From UHGV virus genome UHGV-0175871: a stretch of DNA of 33,986 nt; one strand, given 5' to 3'. This document shows, piece after piece, positions 6,160 through 33,986 of the stretch (within the stretch, counting starts at the first letter, position 1; each line of letters begins with the position of its first letter). The position numbers and the translations under genes were made by a program. The notes under the pieces are model-generated. The model made no database searches and had not been told where the DNA came from. It saw only the letters and a program-made list of their open reading frames with translations. Source of the stretch: a virus.

Positions 6160-6708
6160 ATGCGCGCATCATTGATTAAATTAATTCATGTCGCCCGTCG
6201 CGATCTACAACTCGACGATGACACTTACCGCGCCTTTCTGGTGCAGTGCACGGGCAAAACCAGTTGCCGCGAGCTGTCCGTTGCACAACTGGAACGGGTG
6301 CTCGATGCCATGAAAGAGCGCGGTTTTAAGAAGCAGAAAAAACATCCCCGCCGTCGCTTTAAGGGGCATGTCACACCGCGCGAGAAGATTTACAAAATCT
6401 GGCAGCAGATGTTCCTTGATGGTTTCGTTTCCGATATCAGCGACGCTGCGCTGGACAAATACGTTGAGCGCCTGACAGCCAGACGTAATGGCGGTCAGGG
6501 TGTTTCCACGCTGGCATGGTGTCACGGGGAATCGTTGCAGGTTGTGCTTGAAACGCTCAAACAGTGGCATATGCGCTGCATCCGTGAAGCCTTTGCCCGA
6601 CATGGTGTGCCTTTACCTGTGAGCGAAACTGGGCGGGAGCTGCGCGGCTATGATGCACTGACCAGTGCGTATGCCCGTGCACGAAACAGCGGGAGAATTG
6701 CTGTATGA
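6160..6708 (+). CDS. gemA: GemA, gene expression modulator
   Basis: MRASLIKLIHVARRDLQLDDDTYRA... matches my recollection of Mu GemA; GGAGA RBS 7 nt before ATG 6160; an in-frame upstream ATG at 6145 is an alternative start. Confidence 0.8.
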   Translation: MRASLIKLIHVARRDLQLDDDTYRAFLVQCTGKTSCRELSVAQLERVLDAMKERGFKKQKKHPRRRFKGHVTPREKIYKIWQQMFLDGFVSDISDAALDKYVERLTARRNGGQGVSTLAWCHGESLQVVLETLKQWHMRCIREAFARHGVPLPVSETGRELRGYDALTSAYARARNSGRIAV

Positions 6709-7154
6709 AACAGATGAAAGAGCAGGATTTATTCGAAGACCTCCGGGACGACAGCGTTCTGGAATATCTTCATGATTACCAGGAAAACACCGCTTATCCG
6801 GCGTTACTTTCTGAACTGAACGCACTGCTGCGTAAAGAGCTGGCCCGGATTGGCGCAGACCCTGCCCATTCCCTTGAGCTGGTTGTGGCGATTTGTCGCC
6901 ATATCGGCGGGATGCAGGTTTATGTTCCGAGGGGGAATATTCTGGAGAATCTTGTCCGGGATATGCGTATCTGGCGTGATTTTAACGGCCATAATATTCC
7001 TGAACTGGTTCAGCGTTACGGGGTGACGTATAAAACCGTCTACAAGGCCATCAAACGGATGCGACGTCTGGAGCGCAATAAATACCAGCCGGATTTGTTT
7101 TACCCCTCCCCGAACCTGCCTCACCCCGTTCGTCGTCCGCCACGACGCCCTTAA
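6705..7154 (+). CDS. mor: Mor, middle-operon transcription activator (Mor/C family)
   Basis: 149 aa; the core LELVVAICRHIGGMQVYVPRG...IWRDFNGHNIPELVQRYGVTYKTVYKAIKRMRR matches Mor; extra proline/arginine-rich C-terminal tail; ATG overlaps the gemA stop (ATGA). Confidence 0.85.
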   Translation: MKQMKEQDLFEDLRDDSVLEYLHDYQENTAYPALLSELNALLRKELARIGADPAHSLELVVAICRHIGGMQVYVPRGNILENLVRDMRIWRDFNGHNIPELVQRYGVTYKTVYKAIKRMRRLERNKYQPDLFYPSPNLPHPVRRPPRRP

Positions 7155-7158
7155 TCAA

Positions 7159-7184
7159 TGAAGCCGGTAAATCCGGCTTTTTTT
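7159..7184 (+). terminator. Rho-independent terminator at the end of the early operon
   Basis: Stem AAGCCGG / loop TAAAT / CCGGCTT followed by seven T, 5 bp after the mor stop. Confidence 0.75.
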
Positions 7185-7239: not shown

Positions 7240-7836
7240 ATGGAAAATCAAAAATTCCCCCCGGCCTTTGAGCATGCGCTGAATTTCATTCTGCGTCCCG
7301 ATATCGAAGGCGTCTATGTCAATGACCCCACTGACCGTGGCGGCGAAACCAAATACGGCATTTCTGACCGCCGCGACGGTGTGATTGACGGCAAAACCGA
7401 TGTCAACGGCGACGGCAAACCGGATACCCGCATTAAGGATTTAACCCGCGAACAGGTCGCGCAGATTTACTGGCGCGATTACTGGCTGCCTGCCGGATGT
7501 GACCAGTGGCCTGATGGCGTGGCGATGTTTGTGTTCGATGCAGCGGTTCAGCATGGCGTTAAAAAAGCCATCAGAATTTTGCAGGAAGCCGCTGATGTGG
7601 ATGCTGACGGCATCATCGGCCCGCGTACCCGTAAGGCCGTGAGTCTGTCCACCCCGGACTGGTTGTTGGCCCGCTGCATTGTCCGTCGTTCCCGCTTTTA
7701 TGCCGACATCATCAAGTCAAAACCCGCCCAGGGTAAATACCTGAACGGCTGGTTTAACCGCATGGAAAAACTGACCGACGCCTGTCTGGAAATCATCGAT
7801 ACCCCTCTGGGCATCATGTCCGCCACGCGGGGGTGA
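7240..7836 (+). CDS. Endolysin, GH108 lysozyme domain plus peptidoglycan-binding domain
   Basis: N-terminal FPPAFEHALNFILRPDIEGVYVNDPTDRGGETKYGIS is the GH108 signature; C-terminal ADGIIGPRTRKAV...YLNGWFNRM resembles PG_binding_3. Confidence 0.85.
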   Translation: MENQKFPPAFEHALNFILRPDIEGVYVNDPTDRGGETKYGISDRRDGVIDGKTDVNGDGKPDTRIKDLTREQVAQIYWRDYWLPAGCDQWPDGVAMFVFDAAVQHGVKKAIRILQEAADVDADGIIGPRTRKAVSLSTPDWLLARCIVRRSRFYADIIKSKPAQGKYLNGWFNRMEKLTDACLEIIDTPLGIMSATRG

Positions 7837-7837
7837 T

Positions 7838-8065
7838 ATGGGCAAAGGCTGGGATGCCTCACTGAAAGCCGGGCGGCGTGACCGCCTGCGTCAGGAGGTT
7901 CTGCACCGCATGGCCGGAGGTTCGCCCCCGAAACCGCTGGACTATACCGGTCATGACGGCACACACGCCAGCTACTACATGCGTGGCTGGAACTCCGTGG
8001 ATACACGGGACATTTTCTGGCAGTGCCAGAAGTACAAGGAAAAACTCAATGCACAGAATGAATAG
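7838..8065 (+). CDS. Hypothetical small protein in the lysis cassette
   Basis: 75-aa ORF starting 2 bp after the endolysin stop; no recognisable family. Confidence 0.4.
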   Translation: MGKGWDASLKAGRRDRLRQEVLHRMAGGSPPKPLDYTGHDGTHASYYMRGWNSVDTRDIFWQCQKYKEKLNAQNE

Positions 8066-8459
8066 TCTTTTTGTTCGCGTTATTTACTCCCGCTTTATGT
8101 TGTGCCAGTGGTCGTTTCTGGGGCTGTCGGCAGTGCTTTTTCTGGCGAGCTGTTTTGCCGGATGGCGGGCGTTTGCGGTCATGGTGCTGGCATACGGCGC
8201 GACACTCTGCCTGATTCACAGTTTCCAGCTGGGTAACGTGCCTTATCGCCTGCAACCCAAAAGGCGCTTCCGGGCGGCCTCCCTTCGAATTGTCGTGTGG
8301 TCATGGGTGGTCTGGGCCGTTGGTTTTTTCATGCTGACATTCGGCATTCTTTATCTGAAGGAGCCTTATCAGCTGGCGTTCTGGCTGGGCGGTATCTTTT
8401 GCGCGGCACTTTATAAACATCAGCGCCGTTTTCATAAGGGGGATTCATGGATCCGTTAA
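8049..8459 (+). CDS. Multi-pass membrane protein (possible holin, antiholin or exclusion protein)
   Basis: About 136 aa from ATG 8049; three or four hydrophobic helices (LGLSAVLFLASCFAGW, VMVLAYGATLCLI, VVWSWVVWAVGFFMLTFGILYL, LAFWLGGIFCAALY). Confidence 0.5.
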   Translation: MHRMNSLFVRVIYSRFMLCQWSFLGLSAVLFLASCFAGWRAFAVMVLAYGATLCLIHSFQLGNVPYRLQPKRRFRAASLRIVVWSWVVWAVGFFMLTFGILYLKEPYQLAFWLGGIFCAALYKHQRRFHKGDSWIR

Positions 8460-9055
8460 CCCTTTCAGGCATCGCTTCTGTCCTGCTGAAAGCCGGGCCG
8501 GGGCTGATTCGTTCCGTCGGGCGCTGGTTTGGTGGCAGCACATCTGCCGCCGCTGACTCGGTGGCCGGTATGGTGGAAAGCGTCCGGGAAAGCCTGCCGG
8601 TGGCTGAACAGCAACGCATTCTGGAACAAAAACTGGTGATGCTGTCACCGGAGCAACTGATGCAGCTGGAAACCCTGAAAATTCAGCTGCAACAGCTGGA
8701 GGTGGAACGGCAGAAGCTGGTGCTGGCTGACCAGCAGGCCGCACACCACGAACAGCAGGAAACCATCCGCAATGGTGACAACGCCACGGACAGCTATGTG
8801 CGCCAGACGCGCCCGCTGCTGGCCCGCCTTTCCTGTTACAGCAGTCTGGCCTATGTGCTGTTGCTTTCCTGCGGCCAGATTGCCGGAGCCATTGCCGGTG
8901 CCAGAGGTATCACGCTGCATATGCCGTCACCGGACTGGGATATCACGCTGATGTTACTTACCCCGGCGCTGGGCTATCTCGGCGTGCGAACTCTTGACGG
9001 CTTTGCCCGTTACAGCAAGTCAAGCAAGGACAAAATTTCTGCGGGGCTGAAATGA
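8447..9055 (+). CDS. Holin-like membrane protein (possibly GTA-type 3TM holin family)
   Basis: 202 aa with central coiled-coil (LEQKLVMLSPEQLMQLETLKIQLQQLEVERQKL) and C-terminal hydrophobic helices; follows a GH108 endolysin, as in GTA lysis modules. Confidence 0.45.
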   Translation: MDPLTLSGIASVLLKAGPGLIRSVGRWFGGSTSAAADSVAGMVESVRESLPVAEQQRILEQKLVMLSPEQLMQLETLKIQLQQLEVERQKLVLADQQAAHHEQQETIRNGDNATDSYVRQTRPLLARLSCYSSLAYVLLLSCGQIAGAIAGARGITLHMPSPDWDITLMLLTPALGYLGVRTLDGFARYSKSSKDKISAGLK

Positions 9056-9279
9056 CCGACGAAATCGACCGCATCAGTGAAGTGGTTCTGAACGAACGTC
9101 AGAGCGTCGTTAAAGCCTGGCAGACGCGGACAAAAGAAGCGCCCCACAGCCGGGGCTTCTGCAATGACTGCGGGAACGTTATTCCGGCACAGCGCCTTGC
9201 GGCGCTGCCGGATGTGGTGACCTGTATTGACTGTCAGCAGATACGGGAACACAGGAGGAAATCGTGTCCTGGGAAATGA
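9052..9279 (+). CDS. TraR/DksA-family C4 zinc-finger protein
   Basis: 75 aa with CNDCGNVIPAQRLAALPDVVTCIDCQ (CxxC-17-CxxC) typical of phage TraR-like proteins. Confidence 0.7.
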   Translation: MTDEIDRISEVVLNERQSVVKAWQTRTKEAPHSRGFCNDCGNVIPAQRLAALPDVVTCIDCQQIREHRRKSCPGK

Positions 9280-9569
9280 TCAGAGCCAACTGGCCCATTC
9301 TGTGGGCATTGCTGATGACAGGAATAAACCTGCTTCAGCTGATTCTGGCGAAAACCTACGTCAAACGCGAAGAGTTTGATTCACTCCGTTCCCGCATGTC
9401 GGTGATGGAAAGCCAGGTACACCATTTACCCGACCGTGATGAGTTCCACCGCCTGCAACTGGATATCAGCAACCTGCGGGGAGAAATCAAAGAGCTGGGG
9501 CCATCCATCCGCCAGGTATCCCGCATCAGCGATTTGTTATTAGAGAACGAGTTAAAGGAAAAAAAATAA
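9264..9569 (+). CDS. Small membrane-anchored coiled-coil protein (DUF2730-like)
   Basis: GTG start with AGGAGG RBS; N-terminal TM helix WPILWALLMTGINLLQLIL followed by coiled coil. Confidence 0.5.
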   Translation: MSWEMIRANWPILWALLMTGINLLQLILAKTYVKREEFDSLRSRMSVMESQVHHLPDRDEFHRLQLDISNLRGEIKELGPSIRQVSRISDLLLENELKEKK

Positions 9570-9862
9570 TGGCGATGAAAGAGATCCTCACTGAAGACCG
9601 TCGTCTTGTGTTGCTGCGTTCCCTGCTGGACTGTGGCGACAGCGCGAATGAATCCGTGTTGCAGACCTGCCTTCAGGCCTACGGTCATAAGGTATCCCGT
9701 GATGTGGTGCGCACCCAGCTTGCATGGCTGCGCGAGCAGGGGCTGGTTCGTCTGTCTGATGTGGGCGGCTGTTACGTGGCTGAAATCACCGGCAGCGGTG
9801 AGGATGTGGCAAACGGCCTGTCCAGCGTTCCGGGCGTTAAAAAACCCCGTGCGAGGGACTGA
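9569..9862 (+). CDS. Hypothetical protein, possible winged-helix
   Basis: 97-aa ORF tightly packed with neighbours; no family recognised. Confidence 0.45.
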   Translation: MAMKEILTEDRRLVLLRSLLDCGDSANESVLQTCLQAYGHKVSRDVVRTQLAWLREQGLVRLSDVGGCYVAEITGSGEDVANGLSSVPGVKKPRARD

Positions 9863-9864
9863 GC

Positions 9865-10164
9865 ATGGCCCGAAAACTGAAGCCGTTAAGTCGCGGAGAA
9901 CGGGCCGTCGTGCGGCAGCTGGCGTACTGTCTTGTGCTCGCGGATATTGAGCAAAACGCCATTGTCCGTGCATACGAACAACAGACCGGAAAGCCCTGGA
10001 ACCCGGATGCACCGGATACCCCCATGAAACGTGCCCTGCGTTCATCACCGGCATGTGCGCGGCTGTGGAAGCTGCTGGGTAAGGATATCCGCTCCGTTCG
10101 CGAAGAAATATACGCCGGTCTGAAAACACCGGGAACTGAAGACGGGGGCCGTCGTGAACCGTAA
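9865..10164 (+). CDS. Hypothetical protein
   Basis: 99-aa ORF starting 3 bp after the previous stop. Confidence 0.4.
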   Translation: MARKLKPLSRGERAVVRQLAYCLVLADIEQNAIVRAYEQQTGKPWNPDAPDTPMKRALRSSPACARLWKLLGKDIRSVREEIYAGLKTPGTEDGGRREP

Positions 10165-10301
10165 AAAGAATCCGATAAGTAAAGCGTCCCGTGATGAACT
10201 CCGCCGTCTGGCGCACAACCTGACATGGCGGGAAATCCAGAGTGGCGCACTGAAATCTGCATACGAAAGTTTACAGCGTAGTGAGCAACAGGAGGGCACA
10301 C

Positions 10302-10883
10302 ATGGAAAATGAACAACGCCCCACCCGTGGCCGTCTTTCCAAAGTGGATTTACTCCCGGACAGCATCCGGGAGCAGTTGCATCAGATGCTGCGGGAAAAG
10401 CGGCACACGCAGGAGGAAATCCGCGAAGCCATCAACGCCCTGATTGACGAACACAACCTGCCGGAAGAGATGCAGTTAAGCCGGACGGGCTTAAACCGCT
10501 ATGCCATCCGCATGGAAAAAGTCGGGGCAAAAATCCGTGCCTCCCGCGAAATGGCCGAAGTCTGGGCGGCAAAGCTGGGTTCCGCGCCGACGTCAGACGT
10601 CGGCAAACTGCTGATGGAGTTTGTAAAAACGCTGGCTTTTGAAACGTCCATGTCGATGGCAGAAGACGACAAGCCTGTTGCACCGAAGGCGCTGGGGCAA
10701 CTGGCGCTGGTTGCCCAGCGTCTGGAAGCGGCAGCCATGACCAGCCATAAACGCGAGAAAGCGATCCGTGATGCGTTTGCGCAGGAGATGGCAGAGAAAA
10801 CCGAAGAACTGGTCAGAACGGGCGGTCTGTCAGGTGGTGCGGCTGACACCATCAAACGAGACATTCTGGGGATTAGCGTATGA
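10302..10883 (+). CDS. Terminase small subunit-like DNA-binding protein (DUF3486-like)
   Basis: 193 aa from ATG 10302 with GGAGGG RBS; N-terminus RGRLSKVDLLPDSIREQLHQMLRE; directly precedes and overlaps the large terminase gene. Confidence 0.65.
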   Translation: MENEQRPTRGRLSKVDLLPDSIREQLHQMLREKRHTQEEIREAINALIDEHNLPEEMQLSRTGLNRYAIRMEKVGAKIRASREMAEVWAAKLGSAPTSDVGKLLMEFVKTLAFETSMSMAEDDKPVAPKALGQLALVAQRLEAAAMTSHKREKAIRDAFAQEMAEKTEELVRTGGLSGGAADTIKRDILGISV

Positions 10884-14879: not shown

Positions 14880-14905
14880 TGAAGCCGGTAAATCCGGCTT
14901 TTTTT
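14880..14905 (+). terminator. Rho-independent terminator, exact 26-nt copy of the one at 7159
   Basis: TGAAGCCGGTAAATCCGGCTTTTTTT identical to 7159-7184; lies between F and I. Confidence 0.7.
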
Positions 14906-28038: not shown

Positions 28039-28848
28039 ATGTTTCATGTGGATAATCCGACGGGTGTGCCGGTGATGCCACCTGTCGCGGCTGAATTAAG
28101 CAAAACAACGCTTTATTTTACCGAAGGCGGGAATGGTATTCCGCCCACCTATCCGGGGCCGGACTGGTTTAATATTATTCAGTCCGAACTGCTGGAAATT
28201 CTCCGGCAGGCAAATATCAAACCGGATAAAAACACCACCGACCAGATTATGACGGCGCTGAAAAAACTGTTTATTACGAACAGTGGTTCAGCCGGAGCTA
28301 TTGCCGGATTAACCGGTCAGAATAATACGTTCCCGTATTTTACGGGCGAAGACACAATGGCATTAACGCCGCTCAGTGCTTTTGTGCGCGGTATTCTCGG
28401 GAAAAACACAGCCAGTGAAATTATCGACGCACTTTCATTACGTGACACGGTAAATAAAGCTAATAGTGCTGTACCGAATACCCGCAGGGTCAACGGCATG
28501 GCCCTGTCTTCGGATATCACCATCAGCAACATCAGTGGCAATGCCGGAACGGCAACCCGGCTTCAGACGGCCCGCAGGATTAACAATGTGCTGTTTGATG
28601 GCACCAGCGATATCACCATCAGCAGCACCGATTCCGGCGCTGTGCGTGATTTCAGATACACCAGCGAAGTGTTTCACAATCCCGGTGGTAACGAAATTTC
28701 CTGGGTATTTCGCGCGCCTTCAGGTTGTATTTTGTCAGGTATTAACGTTCAGGATACTGGCAGGAGCTCTGCGGATAACATCGGCGGCGTGTATTACAAA
28801 CAAACTCAGATTTATATCAATGGCGGATGGCGCACGGTATCCGGCTAA
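28039..28848 (+). CDS. Tail fibre protein, first module (short S-like fibre)
   Basis: 269 aa; FPYFTGEDTMALTPLSAFVRGILGKNTASEIIDAL resembles the distal conserved segment of P2 H / lambda Stf-type fibres. Confidence 0.7.
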   Translation: MFHVDNPTGVPVMPPVAAELSKTTLYFTEGGNGIPPTYPGPDWFNIIQSELLEILRQANIKPDKNTTDQIMTALKKLFITNSGSAGAIAGLTGQNNTFPYFTGEDTMALTPLSAFVRGILGKNTASEIIDALSLRDTVNKANSAVPNTRRVNGMALSSDITISNISGNAGTATRLQTARRINNVLFDGTSDITISSTDSGAVRDFRYTSEVFHNPGGNEISWVFRAPSGCILSGINVQDTGRSSADNIGGVYYKQTQIYINGGWRTVSG

Positions 28849-28862
28849 TTAAGGAGAAAATA

Positions 28863-29393
28863 ATGGAACTCAGAAACGTCACGCGTTATTACCCGGAAGA
28901 GATGCCTTATGGTGAAAACATTCAGTATTTCCGCAGTGAAGACGGACAGGATTTTTATGAATCACTGGATAAATTCACGAAGAAATACAAATTGTGTATT
29001 CACCCGGAAACCGGCGTGATTTATTCAATGGCGGAAGACGTGTCCCGTCTTTATCCGGCTGGCTTCACCATTGTGGAAGTGGATGAACTGCCGGAAGGTT
29101 TTGGCATTGAAGCCTGCTGGTATTACAAAGACGGCGAAGTGCTGCCGGTTCCTGTTGATTATTCGCAACTGGCAGAAAAACAACGCCAGAGCCTGCTGAA
29201 TGAAGCGAAGGACATCACCTCCGACTGGAAAACCGAGCTGGAGCTGGGCACCATCAGCGACGATGATAAAGCGCGTCTTACGCAGTGGATGGCATATATC
29301 AAAGCGGTAAAGGCTCTGGATTTAAGCACCGTTACTGACGAAGCCTCCTTTTACTCCATCAACTGGCCGGAGCGTCCCGATGCCGCAGCTTAA
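28863..29393 (+). CDS. Tail fibre assembly chaperone (Mu U / lambda Tfa family)
   Basis: 176 aa from ATG 28863 with AAGGAG RBS; C-terminal ...DDDKARLTQWMAYIKAVKALDLS typical of Tfa proteins. Confidence 0.7.
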   Translation: MELRNVTRYYPEEMPYGENIQYFRSEDGQDFYESLDKFTKKYKLCIHPETGVIYSMAEDVSRLYPAGFTIVEVDELPEGFGIEACWYYKDGEVLPVPVDYSQLAEKQRQSLLNEAKDITSDWKTELELGTISDDDKARLTQWMAYIKAVKALDLSTVTDEASFYSINWPERPDAAA

Positions 29394-32300
29394 AGGTGTG
29401 ATTAAAACGCCCACGGGAGAACCGCTGGGTGGCGCAACCATTACACTGACCTCCCTGCACAACCGTGCAGGGATTCTGAAAAGTGTTTTCAGCCATGTCA
29501 CCACACAGAACGGGGAATATGACTTCACCGTTCTGCCGGGTGTGTACAGCGTTCGCCTGACACAAAGCACACAGCGCCTTTCAGAAATCGGTGTCATCCG
29601 CGTTTATGAAGATTCAGCGGACGGTTCGCTGAATGATTTTCTGGGCGCAACCGATATTGACCTGCGCCCGGAAGCCCTGAAGAAATTCGAAGAGCTGGCG
29701 CAACAGGCGCAGCAAAGCGCAGAAAAAGCAGGAGAGCACGCCACCGCTGCTGAACAGGCCCGCCAGGATACAGAAGCGCTCGCCGGGGAAATACAGCAGG
29801 ATGCAGAAGAAATCGCGGGTAATGTGCAGAAAGCTGAAGAGCTGGCCTCTGAGACCAACCAGAATGCCGCCCGGGCAGAACAGGCGGTCAAAGATGCCGA
29901 TAAGATAGTCCAGAAAGCGGTCGATAAACTTGCTGATGCCGCAACGCTGACCGGTGAGGCAAAAGCCAGCGCCGAAGCGGCAGCAAAAAGCGAGCAGAGC
30001 GCGAAACAGCACAGGGACGAGGCGCAACGGATAGTTGATGACCTGAAGGGAACCAACGCCAGCACGACGCAAAAAGGCCTGGTGCAACTCTGTAGTGATA
30101 CAGACAACGACAGCGAAGAACTGGCCGCCACACCAAAAGCCGTCAAAACCGTCATGGACGAGACGAAAACAAAAGCGCCACTGGACAGCCCGGCATTCAT
30201 CGGCACGCCCACCACACCAACCCCGCCGGACGATGCGACCGGGCTGGAGATGGCGAACGCGGCATTTGTTCGCAAACTGCTTGCTGCGCTGGTTGACTCG
30301 TCACCGGAAGCCCTGGACACACTGAACGAGCTGGCAGCGGCGCTGGGCAATGACCCGGAGTTTGCGACAACAATCTTGAACGCGCTGGCGGGTAAACAAC
30401 CACTCAGTGACGTGTTAACCGCAATCAGTAATCTGGAAGAACGGGCAGATAATCTTCTGTGCTTTAATCATGACGGAAATGCTTCATTGTCTCCGCTGTC
30501 AGAAAAAGCCCGGTCACTGCTGGCACAGGCCACAGCGGAAGCCATGCGCAATGAGCTTGAGCTGAAAAGCGCAGCGGTAAGGGATATTCAGATAGACCTT
30601 TACGACAGCATGGAAGGCCGTGTTGCGCTTCCCGGTGCGTATGGTTACGGAATGACGGACGCCGGAGCACGTTCAATTATTGCCAGCGATATGGCGACTG
30701 TAGCCAGAACCGCTCACAACCTGCACCCGGGACGGTATTACACCTTTTCCACACAAACGGAAAAAACAACCGGAATAACAGAAATTATCTGGCTGGATAA
30801 TGGCCGGGGCGACAAAACCAGTCAGACAGCAACAAAGCTGGTTCTGTTCTTTGGAAAAGACGGACGGATTCTTATGACCGTTCGTGGCGATAATATCTCC
30901 GCCCCGGTCACCTGGACGAATCTGACGCCACAACTGGGCAATGCAGCACAAAAGGATGCGCAGGAGAGTATTTACGACCGCACCGAAGGCCGTCTGGCGG
31001 TTCCTGGCATGTTCGGATTCGGGAAAATATTTTCCAGCGGCGACAGGACCGAGTTTAAAACAGAGGCCGATTTTCTCCGCTGGGTAAAAACGGCAAAACC
31101 CGGACGCTATGCCGTTTATGCAGATACAAATGCGGTAATACAGGGCGTGCTGTTCAAGGGTACCGTTGAAATTATCTGGCCGGAACCTCAAACCAACCCC
31201 AATCCGGCATGTGTGGCTAAAATCATTATTTTTTACGGTATTAACGGCCACATTTATTACAATCGCTACTGGACTACCGGAGATGGTTATCTGGTTGGCT
31301 GGGAAAACCTGAAAGTCAACGAGGTTTCACTCCGGGCACTGATTGAAACCCGTGCGCCACTGAACAGTCCGACACTGACCGGAACGCCGTCCACGCCAAC
31401 ACCACCAGATGATGCAGCAGGTAATGAAATAGCCAATGCGGCGTTTGTCCGCAAACTGCTTGCTGCACTGGTTGACTCGTCACCGGAAGCCCTGGACACG
31501 CTGAACGAGCTGGCAGCGGCGCTGGGTAATGACCCGAACTTTGCGACGACAATCATGAACGCGCTGGCCGGTAAACAACCGCTGAACGATGTGCTGACGG
31601 CTATCAGTGAACTGACGCAACGGGCAGATAATCTTCTGTGCTTTAATCAGGACGGGAATGCTTCACTGTCTCCACTGTCAGAAAAAGCCCGGCTGCTGCT
31701 TGCTCAGACTACAGCGGAAGACATGCTGTCTGTTCTTGAGTTGCAAAAGAATACGTACAGCGCCCAGAGTGATATTTATGACCGGGCGGAAGATAAACTG
31801 GCTCTTCCTGGTGCATTCGGATTTGGTTATCCGTTTGGAAAAGAAGACCAGCTCACCTTTAAAAACACATCGGAGCTGACCACGTGGGTAACAAACGCTT
31901 ATCCGGGACGTTATGCGGTAACCGTCCCTAATCAGGGAACAATCATACCTGGTGTTTATTTTACGGGTATTCTTGATGTTATCTGGCAGATGAACCAGTA
32001 CGAAACAAAGCCCCCGTCAGATGCTGCAAAATGCATAATGTTTTATGCAGGAAACGGTGATATCTGGTTTAACCGATATATTTACGGGCGTCTTGTTGGC
32101 TGGGAGCGAATAAAGATATCCACAGCCGATATTTATAATGTTATGGGGGGGACCATCAGCAATGAGTGGGGAGACCCTGATGTTGGTGGACTGATTATTG
32201 CTGCATACCAGGGAACGACTGACGGAGATACAAAAATCAAGCTTGTGAGAGGGCAATATTACGCAGGCTCACGGCTGGGGCCGGTGGGAATTTCAGCGCC

Positions 32301-32454
32301 CTACAATCCAGCCGGAACGTATTCATCAAGCCCGCAATTCTACGTTATGGGAAATGCAGGTCATTCATTACCGGGTACATATCGCGCCCTGTCCGGGGTA
32401 ACAAACACCTATGGTTCCGACGCGATGATTGGGCTTTTTATTCGCACAGCGTGA
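29380..32454 (+). CDS. Side tail fibre protein, lambda Stf-like, with internal tandem duplication
   Basis: 1024 aa; N-terminal ...IGVIRVYEDSADGSLNDFL; Ala/Glu/Gln-rich coiled shaft; conserved TQKGLVQLCS...LAATPKAVKTVMDETKTKAPLDSPA...LDTLNELAAALGNDPEFATT..NALAGKQP block occurring twice. Confidence 0.85.
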   Translation: MPQLKGVIKTPTGEPLGGATITLTSLHNRAGILKSVFSHVTTQNGEYDFTVLPGVYSVRLTQSTQRLSEIGVIRVYEDSADGSLNDFLGATDIDLRPEALKKFEELAQQAQQSAEKAGEHATAAEQARQDTEALAGEIQQDAEEIAGNVQKAEELASETNQNAARAEQAVKDADKIVQKAVDKLADAATLTGEAKASAEAAAKSEQSAKQHRDEAQRIVDDLKGTNASTTQKGLVQLCSDTDNDSEELAATPKAVKTVMDETKTKAPLDSPAFIGTPTTPTPPDDATGLEMANAAFVRKLLAALVDSSPEALDTLNELAAALGNDPEFATTILNALAGKQPLSDVLTAISNLEERADNLLCFNHDGNASLSPLSEKARSLLAQATAEAMRNELELKSAAVRDIQIDLYDSMEGRVALPGAYGYGMTDAGARSIIASDMATVARTAHNLHPGRYYTFSTQTEKTTGITEIIWLDNGRGDKTSQTATKLVLFFGKDGRILMTVRGDNISAPVTWTNLTPQLGNAAQKDAQESIYDRTEGRLAVPGMFGFGKIFSSGDRTEFKTEADFLRWVKTAKPGRYAVYADTNAVIQGVLFKGTVEIIWPEPQTNPNPACVAKIIIFYGINGHIYYNRYWTTGDGYLVGWENLKVNEVSLRALIETRAPLNSPTLTGTPSTPTPPDDAAGNEIANAAFVRKLLAALVDSSPEALDTLNELAAALGNDPNFATTIMNALAGKQPLNDVLTAISELTQRADNLLCFNQDGNASLSPLSEKARLLLAQTTAEDMLSVLELQKNTYSAQSDIYDRAEDKLALPGAFGFGYPFGKEDQLTFKNTSELTTWVTNAYPGRYAVTVPNQGTIIPGVYFTGILDVIWQMNQYETKPPSDAAKCIMFYAGNGDIWFNRYIYGRLVGWERIKISTADIYNVMGGTISNEWGDPDVGGLIIAAYQGTTDGDTKIKLVRGQYYAGSRLGPVGISAPYNPAGTYSSSPQFYVMGNAGHSLPGTYRALSGVTNTYGSDAMIGLFIRTA
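30175..30546 (+). repeat. Copy 1 of the ~372-bp direct repeat inside the tail fibre gene
   Basis: Aligns in frame with 31354..31725, about 80-90% identity by eye, with perfect blocks of 26-32 bp. Confidence 0.85.
31354..31725 (+). repeat. Copy 2 of the ~372-bp direct repeat inside the tail fibre gene
   Basis: See copy 1; offset 1179 bp (393 codons). Confidence 0.85.
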
Positions 32455-33031
32455 GGAATGCATCGTGGAAATCAAAGAAATCATTAATCCCCGCTATACA
32501 GAAAATAGCGCTGTAGACTGTGACGTTTGGTTTGACGGCCAGCCGCAGCCAGTCCCTTACACTGCCACTCCTGATGATACATCAACAATCGGTAAGCGCA
32601 TCTGGCAGGAACTGCAAAGCGGCAAATGGGGCGAAATCGCCCCGTTCACCATCACGCCGGAGCTTATCGCAGCGGCAAAAGATGCCAAAAAGATGGAAAT
32701 CGAGGCGTGGCGCACAGAACAGGAAGCGCAGCCGTTCACGTTCGAATGGAACGGTCGCACCTGGAACGCTGGCCCCGACTCACTGGCCCGTCTTTATCCT
32801 GTGGTAATGGCGGCGAAATCTGACACAGCGCGGGACGTGATGACGTGGGGTGACGCCGATAATCAACAGGTGAAACTGTCAATGCCGGAACTGGAAGAAC
32901 TGGCGACAGCAATGGCGCAGGCACAGGTCGATCGCAATGACGGGATTTATCAGCGCCAGCGTGAAATGAAGGAGCAGCTTTCCCGGCTGTCCATACTGGA
33001 CGAGGTGAGAGCGTTAACTGTCGGTGATTAA
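32429..33031 (+). CDS. Putative tail fibre assembly chaperone, second module
   Basis: About 190-200 aa; likely GTG start at 32465 after GAGGAA (the track start is a TTG overlapping the fibre gene); assignment by position after the fibre gene. Confidence 0.45.
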   Translation: MGFLFAQREECIVEIKEIINPRYTENSAVDCDVWFDGQPQPVPYTATPDDTSTIGKRIWQELQSGKWGEIAPFTITPELIAAAKDAKKMEIEAWRTEQEAQPFTFEWNGRTWNAGPDSLARLYPVVMAAKSDTARDVMTWGDADNQQVKLSMPELEELATAMAQAQVDRNDGIYQRQREMKEQLSRLSILDEVRALTVGD

Positions 33032-33053
33032 ATAATCAGTATGTATAGTTTAT

Positions 33054-33081
33054 GACGATCGATAACATCATATCGATCGTC
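33054..33081 (+). promoter_or_regulatory. GATC-containing inverted repeat upstream of com-mom (candidate Dam-methylation-sensitive operator)
   Basis: GACGATCGATA-ACATCA-TATCGATCGTC: 11-bp arms each with a GATC, about 75 bp upstream of com. Confidence 0.55.
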
Positions 33082-33154
33082 GGTTTGCATCAATTGTGAT
33101 TAAATACCCCCAGCCCTCCGGGCGCTCATGTCTGGTTATTACACAGGGGGAATC

Positions 33155-33340
33155 ATGGACTCTGTTCGCTGTAAAAACTGCAATAAATTACTGTTTAAAG
33201 GAGGTTTTAAGCATATAGAAATTAAATGCCCTCGCTGTAAACGTTACATTGTCATATCGAATGCCAAAGAGCATCCCACGGAGCTGTATTGTGGGAAAAG
33301 AGAAGAAATCACGCATTCTGACAAAACCCTGCGTTATTGA
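33155..33340 (+). CDS. com: Com, zinc-finger translational activator of mom
   Basis: 61 aa from ATG 33155 after AGGGGG; [10 protein letters not shown]...[13 protein letters not shown]...[22 protein letters not shown] matches Mu Com. Confidence 0.8.
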
Positions 33341-33986
33341 GTATGAAGGCCGGATTGTCGGCTATGGTTCAAAGGAGCTGCGCGTTGAAACCATATCCTG
33401 CTGGCTGGCCCGCACAATCATTCAGACAAAACACTATTCTCGCCGTTTTGTGAATAACTCCTACCTGCATCTTGGCGTATTCAGCGGACGTGATCTGGTT
33501 GGCGTTCTTCAGTGGGGATATGCCCTTAACCCCAACTCAGGGCGTCGGGTCGTGCTTGAAACGGATAACCGGGGCTATATGGAACTGAATCGCATGTGGC
33601 TACACGACGACATGCCCCGCAACTCTGAATCACGGGCCATCAGTTACGCGCTGAAAACCATCAGGTTACTGTATCCGTCAGTTGAGTGGGTTCAGTCTTT
33701 TGCAGACGAACGCTGCGGACGTGCTGGCGTGGTATATCAGGCGTCGAATTTTGATTTTATAGGCAGCCACGAAAGCACGTTCTACGAACTGGACGGCGAG
33801 TGGTATCACGAGATAGCGATGAACGCGATTAAGCGCGGAGGGCAACGAGGTGTGTATTTACGGGCTAATAAGGAGCGGGCCGTGGTACACAAATTTAATC
33901 AGTATCGCTACATCAGATTCCTGAATAAGCGCGCAAAAAAGCGCCTAAACACCAAGCTATTCAGGGTTCAGCCATACCCGAAGTGA
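33291..33986 (+). CDS. mom: Mom, DNA modification enzyme (adenine modification, anti-restriction)
   Basis: Sequence ...[15 protein letters not shown]...[23 protein letters not shown] matches Mu Mom; GTG at 33291 gives 231 aa; in-frame ATGs at 33249 and 33261 are alternative starts; overlaps the 3' end of com. Confidence 0.85.

Follow-up and report, generated by a model that had tools for sequence, protein, structure and literature searches.

The com and mom genes

The window analysed here is the whole 33,986-nucleotide (nt) stretch of UHGV virus genome UHGV-0175871, read on one strand. Its last kilobase holds a com-mom operon of the kind known from phage Mu, complete and apparently functional, situated at the right-hand end of a Mu-like prophage. 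The com gene runs on the + strand from ATG 33155 to TGA 33340 and encodes a 61-amino-acid (aa) translational activator with a CCCC zinc finger. Directly downstream and overlapping it by 50 nt, mom extends on the same strand from GTG 33291 to TGA 33986 and encodes a 231-aa GNAT-fold, tRNA(Gly)-dependent adenine N6 modifier. Gene order and overlap length are those of Mu, and also of D108 and SfMu, in whose genomes the two genes likewise lie at the right end. The original prediction had placed both genes here, with mom overlapping the 3′ end of com. Pfam matches, identity to the Mu proteins and catalytic residues all agree with it, and we regard the two gene identities as virtually certain.

Com matched the Pfam family Zn_ribbon_Com (PF10122) with 30.5 bits, the cut-off being 22.9. 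It is 74% identical to Com of Mu and of SfMu, with C6, C9, C25 and C28 invariant, and is one residue shorter than the Mu protein through the deletion of one codon. Relatives of the cassette were collected by a Mom-based scan, which gave 46 IMG/VR loci and, with a single Mom query, 4 genome loci; more came from E. coli RefSeq genomes. The Shine-Dalgarno sequence of com, GGGGG at 33146-33150 (+ strand), was read from the sequence. It lies 4 nt before ATG 33155 and is kept in relatives. A 70-aa Com starting at the in-frame ATG 33128 was ruled out because this ATG is missing in relatives. We also rejected a CCCCC/GGGGG pairing that would mask the Shine-Dalgarno sequence of com, as the fold was no better than those of shuffled sequences (z = -0.58). 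A search of NCBIfam with Com, Mom and the DUF4376 protein encoded just upstream gave no match for any of the three.

Mom matched Pfam PF25680 over the entire profile (E=3e-75, positions 1-202 of 202) and the solved Mu Mom chain, PDB 8bv8, with E=9e-156; 226 of its 231 residues (98%) are identical to those of Mu Mom. An in-frame ATG at 33261 would yield a 241-aa Mom, the form used in recent papers. Mu Mom moves glycine from Gly-tRNA(Gly) onto adenine N6 in double-stranded DNA; the glycyl group then rearranges to give carbamoylmethyl-adenine, and many restriction enzymes are blocked. Given the 98% identity and the intact catalytic residues, the same chemistry and the same protection from restriction would be expected of the protein encoded here. 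All nine residues whose importance or necessity for activity has been reported (PMC13219725) are present: W48, H58, Y59, R111, S124, D149, R151, Y159 and W181 (241-aa numbering). Codon differences between this mom and that of Mu comprise 48 synonymous and 5 non-synonymous changes, and the gene is therefore under strong purifying selection.

Predicted translational control of mom

Two hairpins with the structure known from Mu are predicted in the mRNA ahead of and across the mom start. The putative Com target (33261-33274, + strand) consists of a stem AUGC/GCAU and a loop CAAAGA. Loop and closing base pair together contain CC-AAA-GAG at 33264-33271, an instance of the CC-N3-GAG motif also found in the Mu hairpin. 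The Com motif defined by systematic evolution of ligands by exponential enrichment is 5'-CC(N)2-3GAG-3', located in a hairpin loop of 6 nt adjoining the translation-inhibition structure (PMC6483171). Among the enterobacterial cassettes compared, (A/G)UGCC-NNN-GAGCAUCCCAC was kept in all, the NNN being variable. The second hairpin, CCCACGG/UUGUGGG at 33275-33295 (+ strand), represents the translation-inhibition structure (predicted -9.3 kcal/mol, z = -2.65) and, as in Mu, covers the GUG start codon of mom (33291-33293); it also buries part of the mom Shine-Dalgarno sequence GGAG. An Rfam search of 32800-33986 returned no match. In the proposed mechanism, translation of mom would be held off by the hairpin over its GUG, and binding of Com to the adjoining CC-N3-GAG hairpin would free it. 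Judged from these folds, it is very likely that this RNA switch is at work here.

An inverted repeat with two GATC sites upstream of com

A repeat search detected the inverted repeat GACGATCGATA-N6-TATCGATCGTC upstream of com. Its 11-nt arms (33054-33064 and 33071-33081) are 100% complementary, and the com ATG follows 74 nt after the end of the right arm. Each arm contains one GATC inside CGATCG, site 1 at 33057-33060 in the left arm and site 2 at 33075-33078 in the right arm, and the distance of 18 base pairs (bp) from start to start is equal to that in Mu. The repeat had been described beforehand with 11-bp arms, two CGATCG and a position about 75 bp upstream of com, and this description proved exact on checking the sequence.

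No other 4-nt palindrome in the window is as depleted as GATC, which occurs 41 times as compared with 119.5 +/- 9.6 in shuffled sequences. The ratio of observed to expected sites (expectation about 120-149) is 0.28, versus 0.44 in Mu, and the 9.2 kb from 23753 to 32929 contain no GATC at all. At the density of the window, the probability of finding at least two GATCs in a given 28-nt span is about 6e-4. In addition, both sites were invariant in the 17 distinct relatives of the window type that we aligned. Chance does not account for the GATC pair.

The 17-sequence alignment showed further invariant elements, namely TATAG, ACGATCGATA, TATCGATCGTC and a CATC located to the right of the repeat. 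The arms of the repeat were likewise constant, except for one outer-end base of the left arm in a single locus (L041). Variation was seen at the first two bases of the spacer, at the three bases that follow CATC and over about 8 nt after GGGC. Conservation starts at about 33040 whatever the gene on the left, and homology is lost to the left of about 33030-33040 in other contexts. For three left-hand contexts (gin, DUF4376 and others), the conserved stretch begins at the (A/G)TATAG that belongs to the first OxyR-like half-site described below.

Comparison with the mom promoter of Mu

The Mu mom promoter (Pmom) is controlled by Dam, OxyR and C, and Com also regulates the operon. OxyR sites reportedly have an N7 spacing for the oxidised form of the protein and an extended spacing for the reduced form (Toledano et al. 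1994). For the limits of the OxyR footprint at Mu Pmom we relied on the Mu annotation and on secondary citations. Candidate sites were scored against the OxyR dimer consensus ATAGnTnnnAnCTAT, with 10 specified positions per half-site (quoted in PMC2909390). Half-site A, ATAGTTTATGACGAT at 33045-33059, agrees with the consensus at 8 of 10 positions; this ATAG-N7-CGAT is among only three window positions that score at least 8/10. Its counterpart in Mu is ATAGAAAACGACGAT; the right element of the half-site shares bases with GATC site 1. A degenerate half-site B, ATCGTCGGTTTGCAT at 33076-33090, reaches 5/10 compared with 7/10 for its Mu equivalent. Together they form the best composite of the window (at 33045, 8+5 = 13/20), with the two half-sites offset by 31 nt as in Mu. 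The best composite of Mu Pmom, ATAG...CGAT plus ATCG...AGAT at the same offset, scores 7+7 = 14/20 and spans three GATCs. The centre of the A plus B composite, 33067.5, is exactly that of the inverted repeat.

Direct alignment of the conserved upstream block (Mu ATATAGAAAACGACGATCGAATCAATTAAATCGATCGG, window GTATAGTTTATGACGATCGATAACATCATATCGATCGT) placed GACGATCGA...ATCGATCG in register with Mu. Because both GATCs lie in this aligned block with the same 18-nt spacing, behind the ATAG, they correspond, in register, to Mu Dam sites 1 and 2. The third Mu site, CAGATCGATTATG, corresponds to GCATCAATTGTG in the window, which is without GATC: CATC at 33088-33091 occupies its place, 13 nt after site 2. 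The window therefore has two GATCs and a CATC where Mu has three GATCs spaced by 18 and 13 nt. In Mu the block overlaps the last codons of gin, whose 3′ end includes Dam site 1; the window, unlike Mu, keeps the block without gin or a G segment.

In the operators of agn43 of E. coli and gtr of Salmonella/P22, GATCs lie in OxyR half-sites, as they would here, and methylation and OxyR binding are mutually exclusive. The gtr operator has a pair of GATCs 13 nt apart inside one OxyR dimer half-site, like Mu sites 2 and 3, and a CATC mutation there abolishes methylation and leaves the OxyR consensus unaltered (PMC2909390). By analogy, the natural CATC of the window is the same kind of change at Mu site 3. 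The window differs from gtr in that it keeps one GATC per half-site only. Moreover, agn43 and gtr phase-vary a chromosomal or prophage surface trait, whereas the operator of the window would gate a lytic-phase, potentially toxic DNA-modifying enzyme.

The promoter-proximal region and the activator

The sequence that follows CATC is a lineage-specific promoter-proximal block, AATTGT-GATTAA-ATACCCCC-A-GCCCTCCGGGC (33092-33123, + strand), largely invariant in the 17 relatives. Beyond short motifs it could not be aligned with Mu Pmom, and the alignment has an 11-nt gap. The promoter-proximal 70 nt are not homologous to Mu Pmom, and com is 11 nt nearer to the conserved upstream block than it is in Mu. 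Part of the block, AATTGT-N6-ATACCCCC, is loosely similar to the Mu C site GATTAT-N6-ATAACC. However, the elements of the Mu promoter (TTAT-N6-ATAA, a T6 spacer and the -10 sequence TAAGAT) are replaced in the window, which has TTGT-N6-ATAC, no run of Ts and no TAAGAT. No sigma-70-like promoter was found by a scan of 32800-33400. Spacing from the ATACCCCC box points to TGTCTG (TATCTG or TATCCT in relatives) as no more than a tentative -10 candidate.

With Mu C as tblastn query, the only match in the window was the Mor orthologue at 6705-7154. This single Mor-family gene shares 63% identity with Mu Mor and 32% with C. It is directly followed by lysis genes, a GH108 endolysin gene coming first, and no second Mor-family domain was found among the open reading frames of 7240-10883. 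An open reading frame for a DksA/TraR-type C4 zinc-finger protein lies at 9052-9279. A 22-nt element, AAGCCGGTAAATCCGGCTTTTT, occurs in two perfect copies, at 7161-7182 ahead of the lysis genes and at 14882-14903 ahead of the protease and capsid genes, with similar sequence downstream of each. It closely resembles the Mor-box/terminator of the Mu promoter Pm, AAGCCGGTTAATCCGGCTTTTT, which suggests that Mor-dependent promoters drive the late operons directly. A Pm-type promoter at com was rejected because this 22-mer has no copy near com. As judged from these comparisons, a lineage-specific core promoter has taken the place of the Mu one in this phage, which has one Mor-type activator and no C.

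The alignment with Mu Pmom thus divides the claim, made in the original prediction, that the region matches Dam/OxyR control of the Mu kind. What stood was the block with GATCs 1 and 2 in register and ATAG-N7-CGAT in front of it; what did not stand was identity with Mu over the third GATC, the second half-site and the remainder of the promoter. In other words, the lineage has kept a reduced version of the putative methylation-sensing part, and its activation part is not the one found in Mu.

A further candidate element is the 14-mer AATACCCCCAGCCC (33103-33116, + strand) within the promoter-proximal block. This sequence, AATACCCCCRGCCC, has a single other exact copy in the window, at 23317-23330 inside an N-like tail gene, and that copy resembles the Mu PP late-promoter box CCATAACCCCGG. 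Allowing for all 14-mers of the region, the rough chance of such a second copy is about 0.05-0.1, and we consider it a lead, not a result. One could imagine that mom has been rewired to a minimal two-GATC palindromic Dam/OxyR operator plus a new activator-dependent promoter whose box, AATACCCCCRGCCC, is shared with 23317; this proposal is tentative, and we are inclined to doubt it. If it were true, the single Mor-type protein or an unrecognised factor would have taken over the role of C at late promoters.

Possible roles of the inverted repeat

The explanation that we favour, with a probability of roughly 0.65, combines an intact com-mom cassette, the Com-dependent RNA switch, a reduced Dam/OxyR operator and an exchanged promoter. 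In an operator for an OxyR dimer of dimers, the palindrome would supply the inner pair of recognition elements, and a Dam site overlaps with each. OxyR would bind the unmethylated DNA and keep mom silent; once Dam had methylated the two GATCs, OxyR would come off and mom would be freed. This gating is suggested by the in-register homology to the mapped region of Mu and by the conservation among relatives, and on these grounds the operator is probably still functional.

Several observations weigh against this explanation. Besides the low score of half-site B, eight other window positions also reach 13/20 with the OxyR consensus, so that the consensus score alone is weak. Two adjoining CGATCG by themselves generate part of the palindrome. 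Since no promoter was located, transcription might come from the upstream tail-fibre operon, and the scan of 32800-33400 found no + strand terminator between that operon and com-mom. Finally, if the repeat is read through, it would form a strong RNA hairpin (-17.9 kcal/mol, z = -5.15), and the Mu region does not.

This last point raises the question of whether the repeat acts as RNA, either as a 3′ stem-loop that ends or protects the tail-fibre transcript or by attenuating read-through into com-mom, the GATCs being incidental. The hairpin has 12 bp, none of 200 shuffled sequences folded as well, it lies 23 nt past the DUF4376 stop codon in a region without any other terminator in the scan, and the palindrome is longer in the window lineage than in Mu. 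Against such a role, the sequence after the hairpin (GGUUUGCAUC) is not U-rich and the terminator scan does not call the repeat. The lone substitution in an arm (G to A in L041) is not compensated, the conserved stretch reaches the ATAG, outside the stem, and the GATC positions are also kept in Mu-type and divergent cassettes that do not form such a hairpin. We therefore find a role as RNA quite unlikely. Loss or decay of the Dam/OxyR control in this lineage, leaving mom under a late activator and Com only, would fit the CATC found at the third site in 17 of the 17 distinct sequences, the 5/10 of half-site B and the replacement of the promoter part relative to Mu. Decaying sites would drift, however, and here both GATCs, their flanks and the ATAG are invariant while neighbouring positions vary. 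As this invariance occurs in a genome that otherwise purges GATC, continued selection is favoured over loss, and a vestigial operator seems unlikely to us. The palindrome might also be the operator of another dimeric regulator of phage or host. The perfect dyad is 2 nt longer, inward and outward, than the OxyR consensus specifies, and GATCGATA-N6-TATCGATC is found again in the distant cassette L052. Yet the cassette has no linked candidate regulator gene and the geometry matches the OxyR region of Mu exactly, which makes a regulator other than OxyR very unlikely.

Distribution of the cassette

Of the 5,426 complete E. coli genomes, 49 contained the window-type upstream region, which was not found in the phage-genome collection; the cassette therefore belongs to a recurrent prophage lineage and is not an isolated oddity. 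About 25 of the IMG/VR loci fetched have the window cassette type, and gin is absent with it in all of these loci and genomes. Among the E. coli RefSeq prophages without gin, those of STEC388, SA53-3 and Z0117EC0133 share with the window a cassette of 94-98% nucleotide identity, the two-GATC upstream region and tandem tail-fibre genes upstream. They differ in the upstream neighbour, which may be DUF4376, a tail fibre or an insertion sequence (IS), and some are deleted to the tail end plus com-mom. In E. coli Z0117EC0133 (L057, NZ_CP098183.1 2302680-2313810), a deleted prophage remnant with a truncated transposase joined to baseplate genes retains an intact window-type com-mom cassette. A search of the literature library gave no description of this gin-less E. 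coli lineage, which does not disprove that one exists.

Mu-type and window-type cassettes are distinguished by several features. Com has 62 aa in the former and 61 aa in the latter. Relative to the com ATG, GATCs lie at -109, -91 and -78 in Mu-type cassettes, and window-type cassettes have two, in most cases at -98 and -80 but displaced by one in a few loci. The upstream neighbour is gin in the Mu type, as against DUF4376, another tail-fibre gene or an IS element in the window type, where gin is never present. Within the Mu type gin is found upstream in most cassettes and truncated or absent in a few: four IMG/VR loci (L038, L039, L040 and L042) have only a 55-aa gin remnant upstream, and L026, L029 and L033 are without any gin. 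This indicates that gin was lost more than once.

Distant cassettes whose Mom is 81-89% identical (L008, L009, L049-L051 and L054) have three GATCs in flanks that are otherwise unalignable. All of these cassettes have 13 nt between the last two GATCs; between the first two the distance is 18-19 nt, except in L049 (31 nt). Two other loci, L007 and L052, have two GATCs and a TATC.

The cassette itself brings nothing new: Mom chemistry, the Com switch and Dam/OxyR control have been described for Mu, and RefSeq labels the genes. It is an ordinary gene module, a known system with modest regulatory variation. Its modest value is comparative, as natural cassettes differ in the number of GATCs (two or three) and in whether they have a C-type promoter. 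The indispensable parts of the over-regulated mom control would be ATAG, the inner pair of GATC elements and both hairpins (Com target and translation inhibition); exchangeable would be Dam site 3, the core promoter and the overlap with gin. These natural variants are ready for testing how many methyl groups exclude OxyR.

Gene order and tail-fibre genes of the window

The window opens with the start codon ATG of a ner homologue at position 1, and its last codon is the mom stop (33986). With these limits it includes neither the repressor gene nor either of the transposon ends (attL/attR). The same cut is seen in many IMG/VR proviruses belonging to this lineage (locus length 3696). A tblastn comparison showed the window to be collinear with phage Mu: it begins with ner, A, B, gam, gemA and mor, continues with the head and tail genes and closes with com and mom. 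Likeness to Mu at the DNA level is confined to the window ends, and at the right end BLASTN homology to Mu, D108 and SfMu starts only at 33165, within com.

Gin gave no tblastn match in the whole window, no inverted repeat of at least 20 nt was detected in 27400-33986, and all fibre genes are on the + strand with no oppositely oriented S′/U′. The earlier statement that the G/gin module is gone while com-mom is kept was thereby borne out. In place of the invertible S/U-S′/U′ of Mu, two fibre/chaperone pairs (28039-33031) stand in tandem. The first consists of an S-like gene (28039-28848, + strand) and a U-like gene (28827-29393, + strand). The second comprises a gene for a 1024-aa tail fibre with a lambdoid-type N-terminal domain (29380-32454, + strand) and the DUF4376 gene (32429-33031, + strand; Pfam DUF4376, E=3.5e-17), the product of which is likely a tail-fibre accessory protein. 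The DUF4376 gene sits where Mu has gin, and its stop codon forms the left edge of the cassette. The gene for the 1024-aa fibre contains an internal direct duplication, with 300-nt copies at 30175 and 31354 that are 83% identical (period 1179 nt), giving two similar C-terminal modules in one protein.

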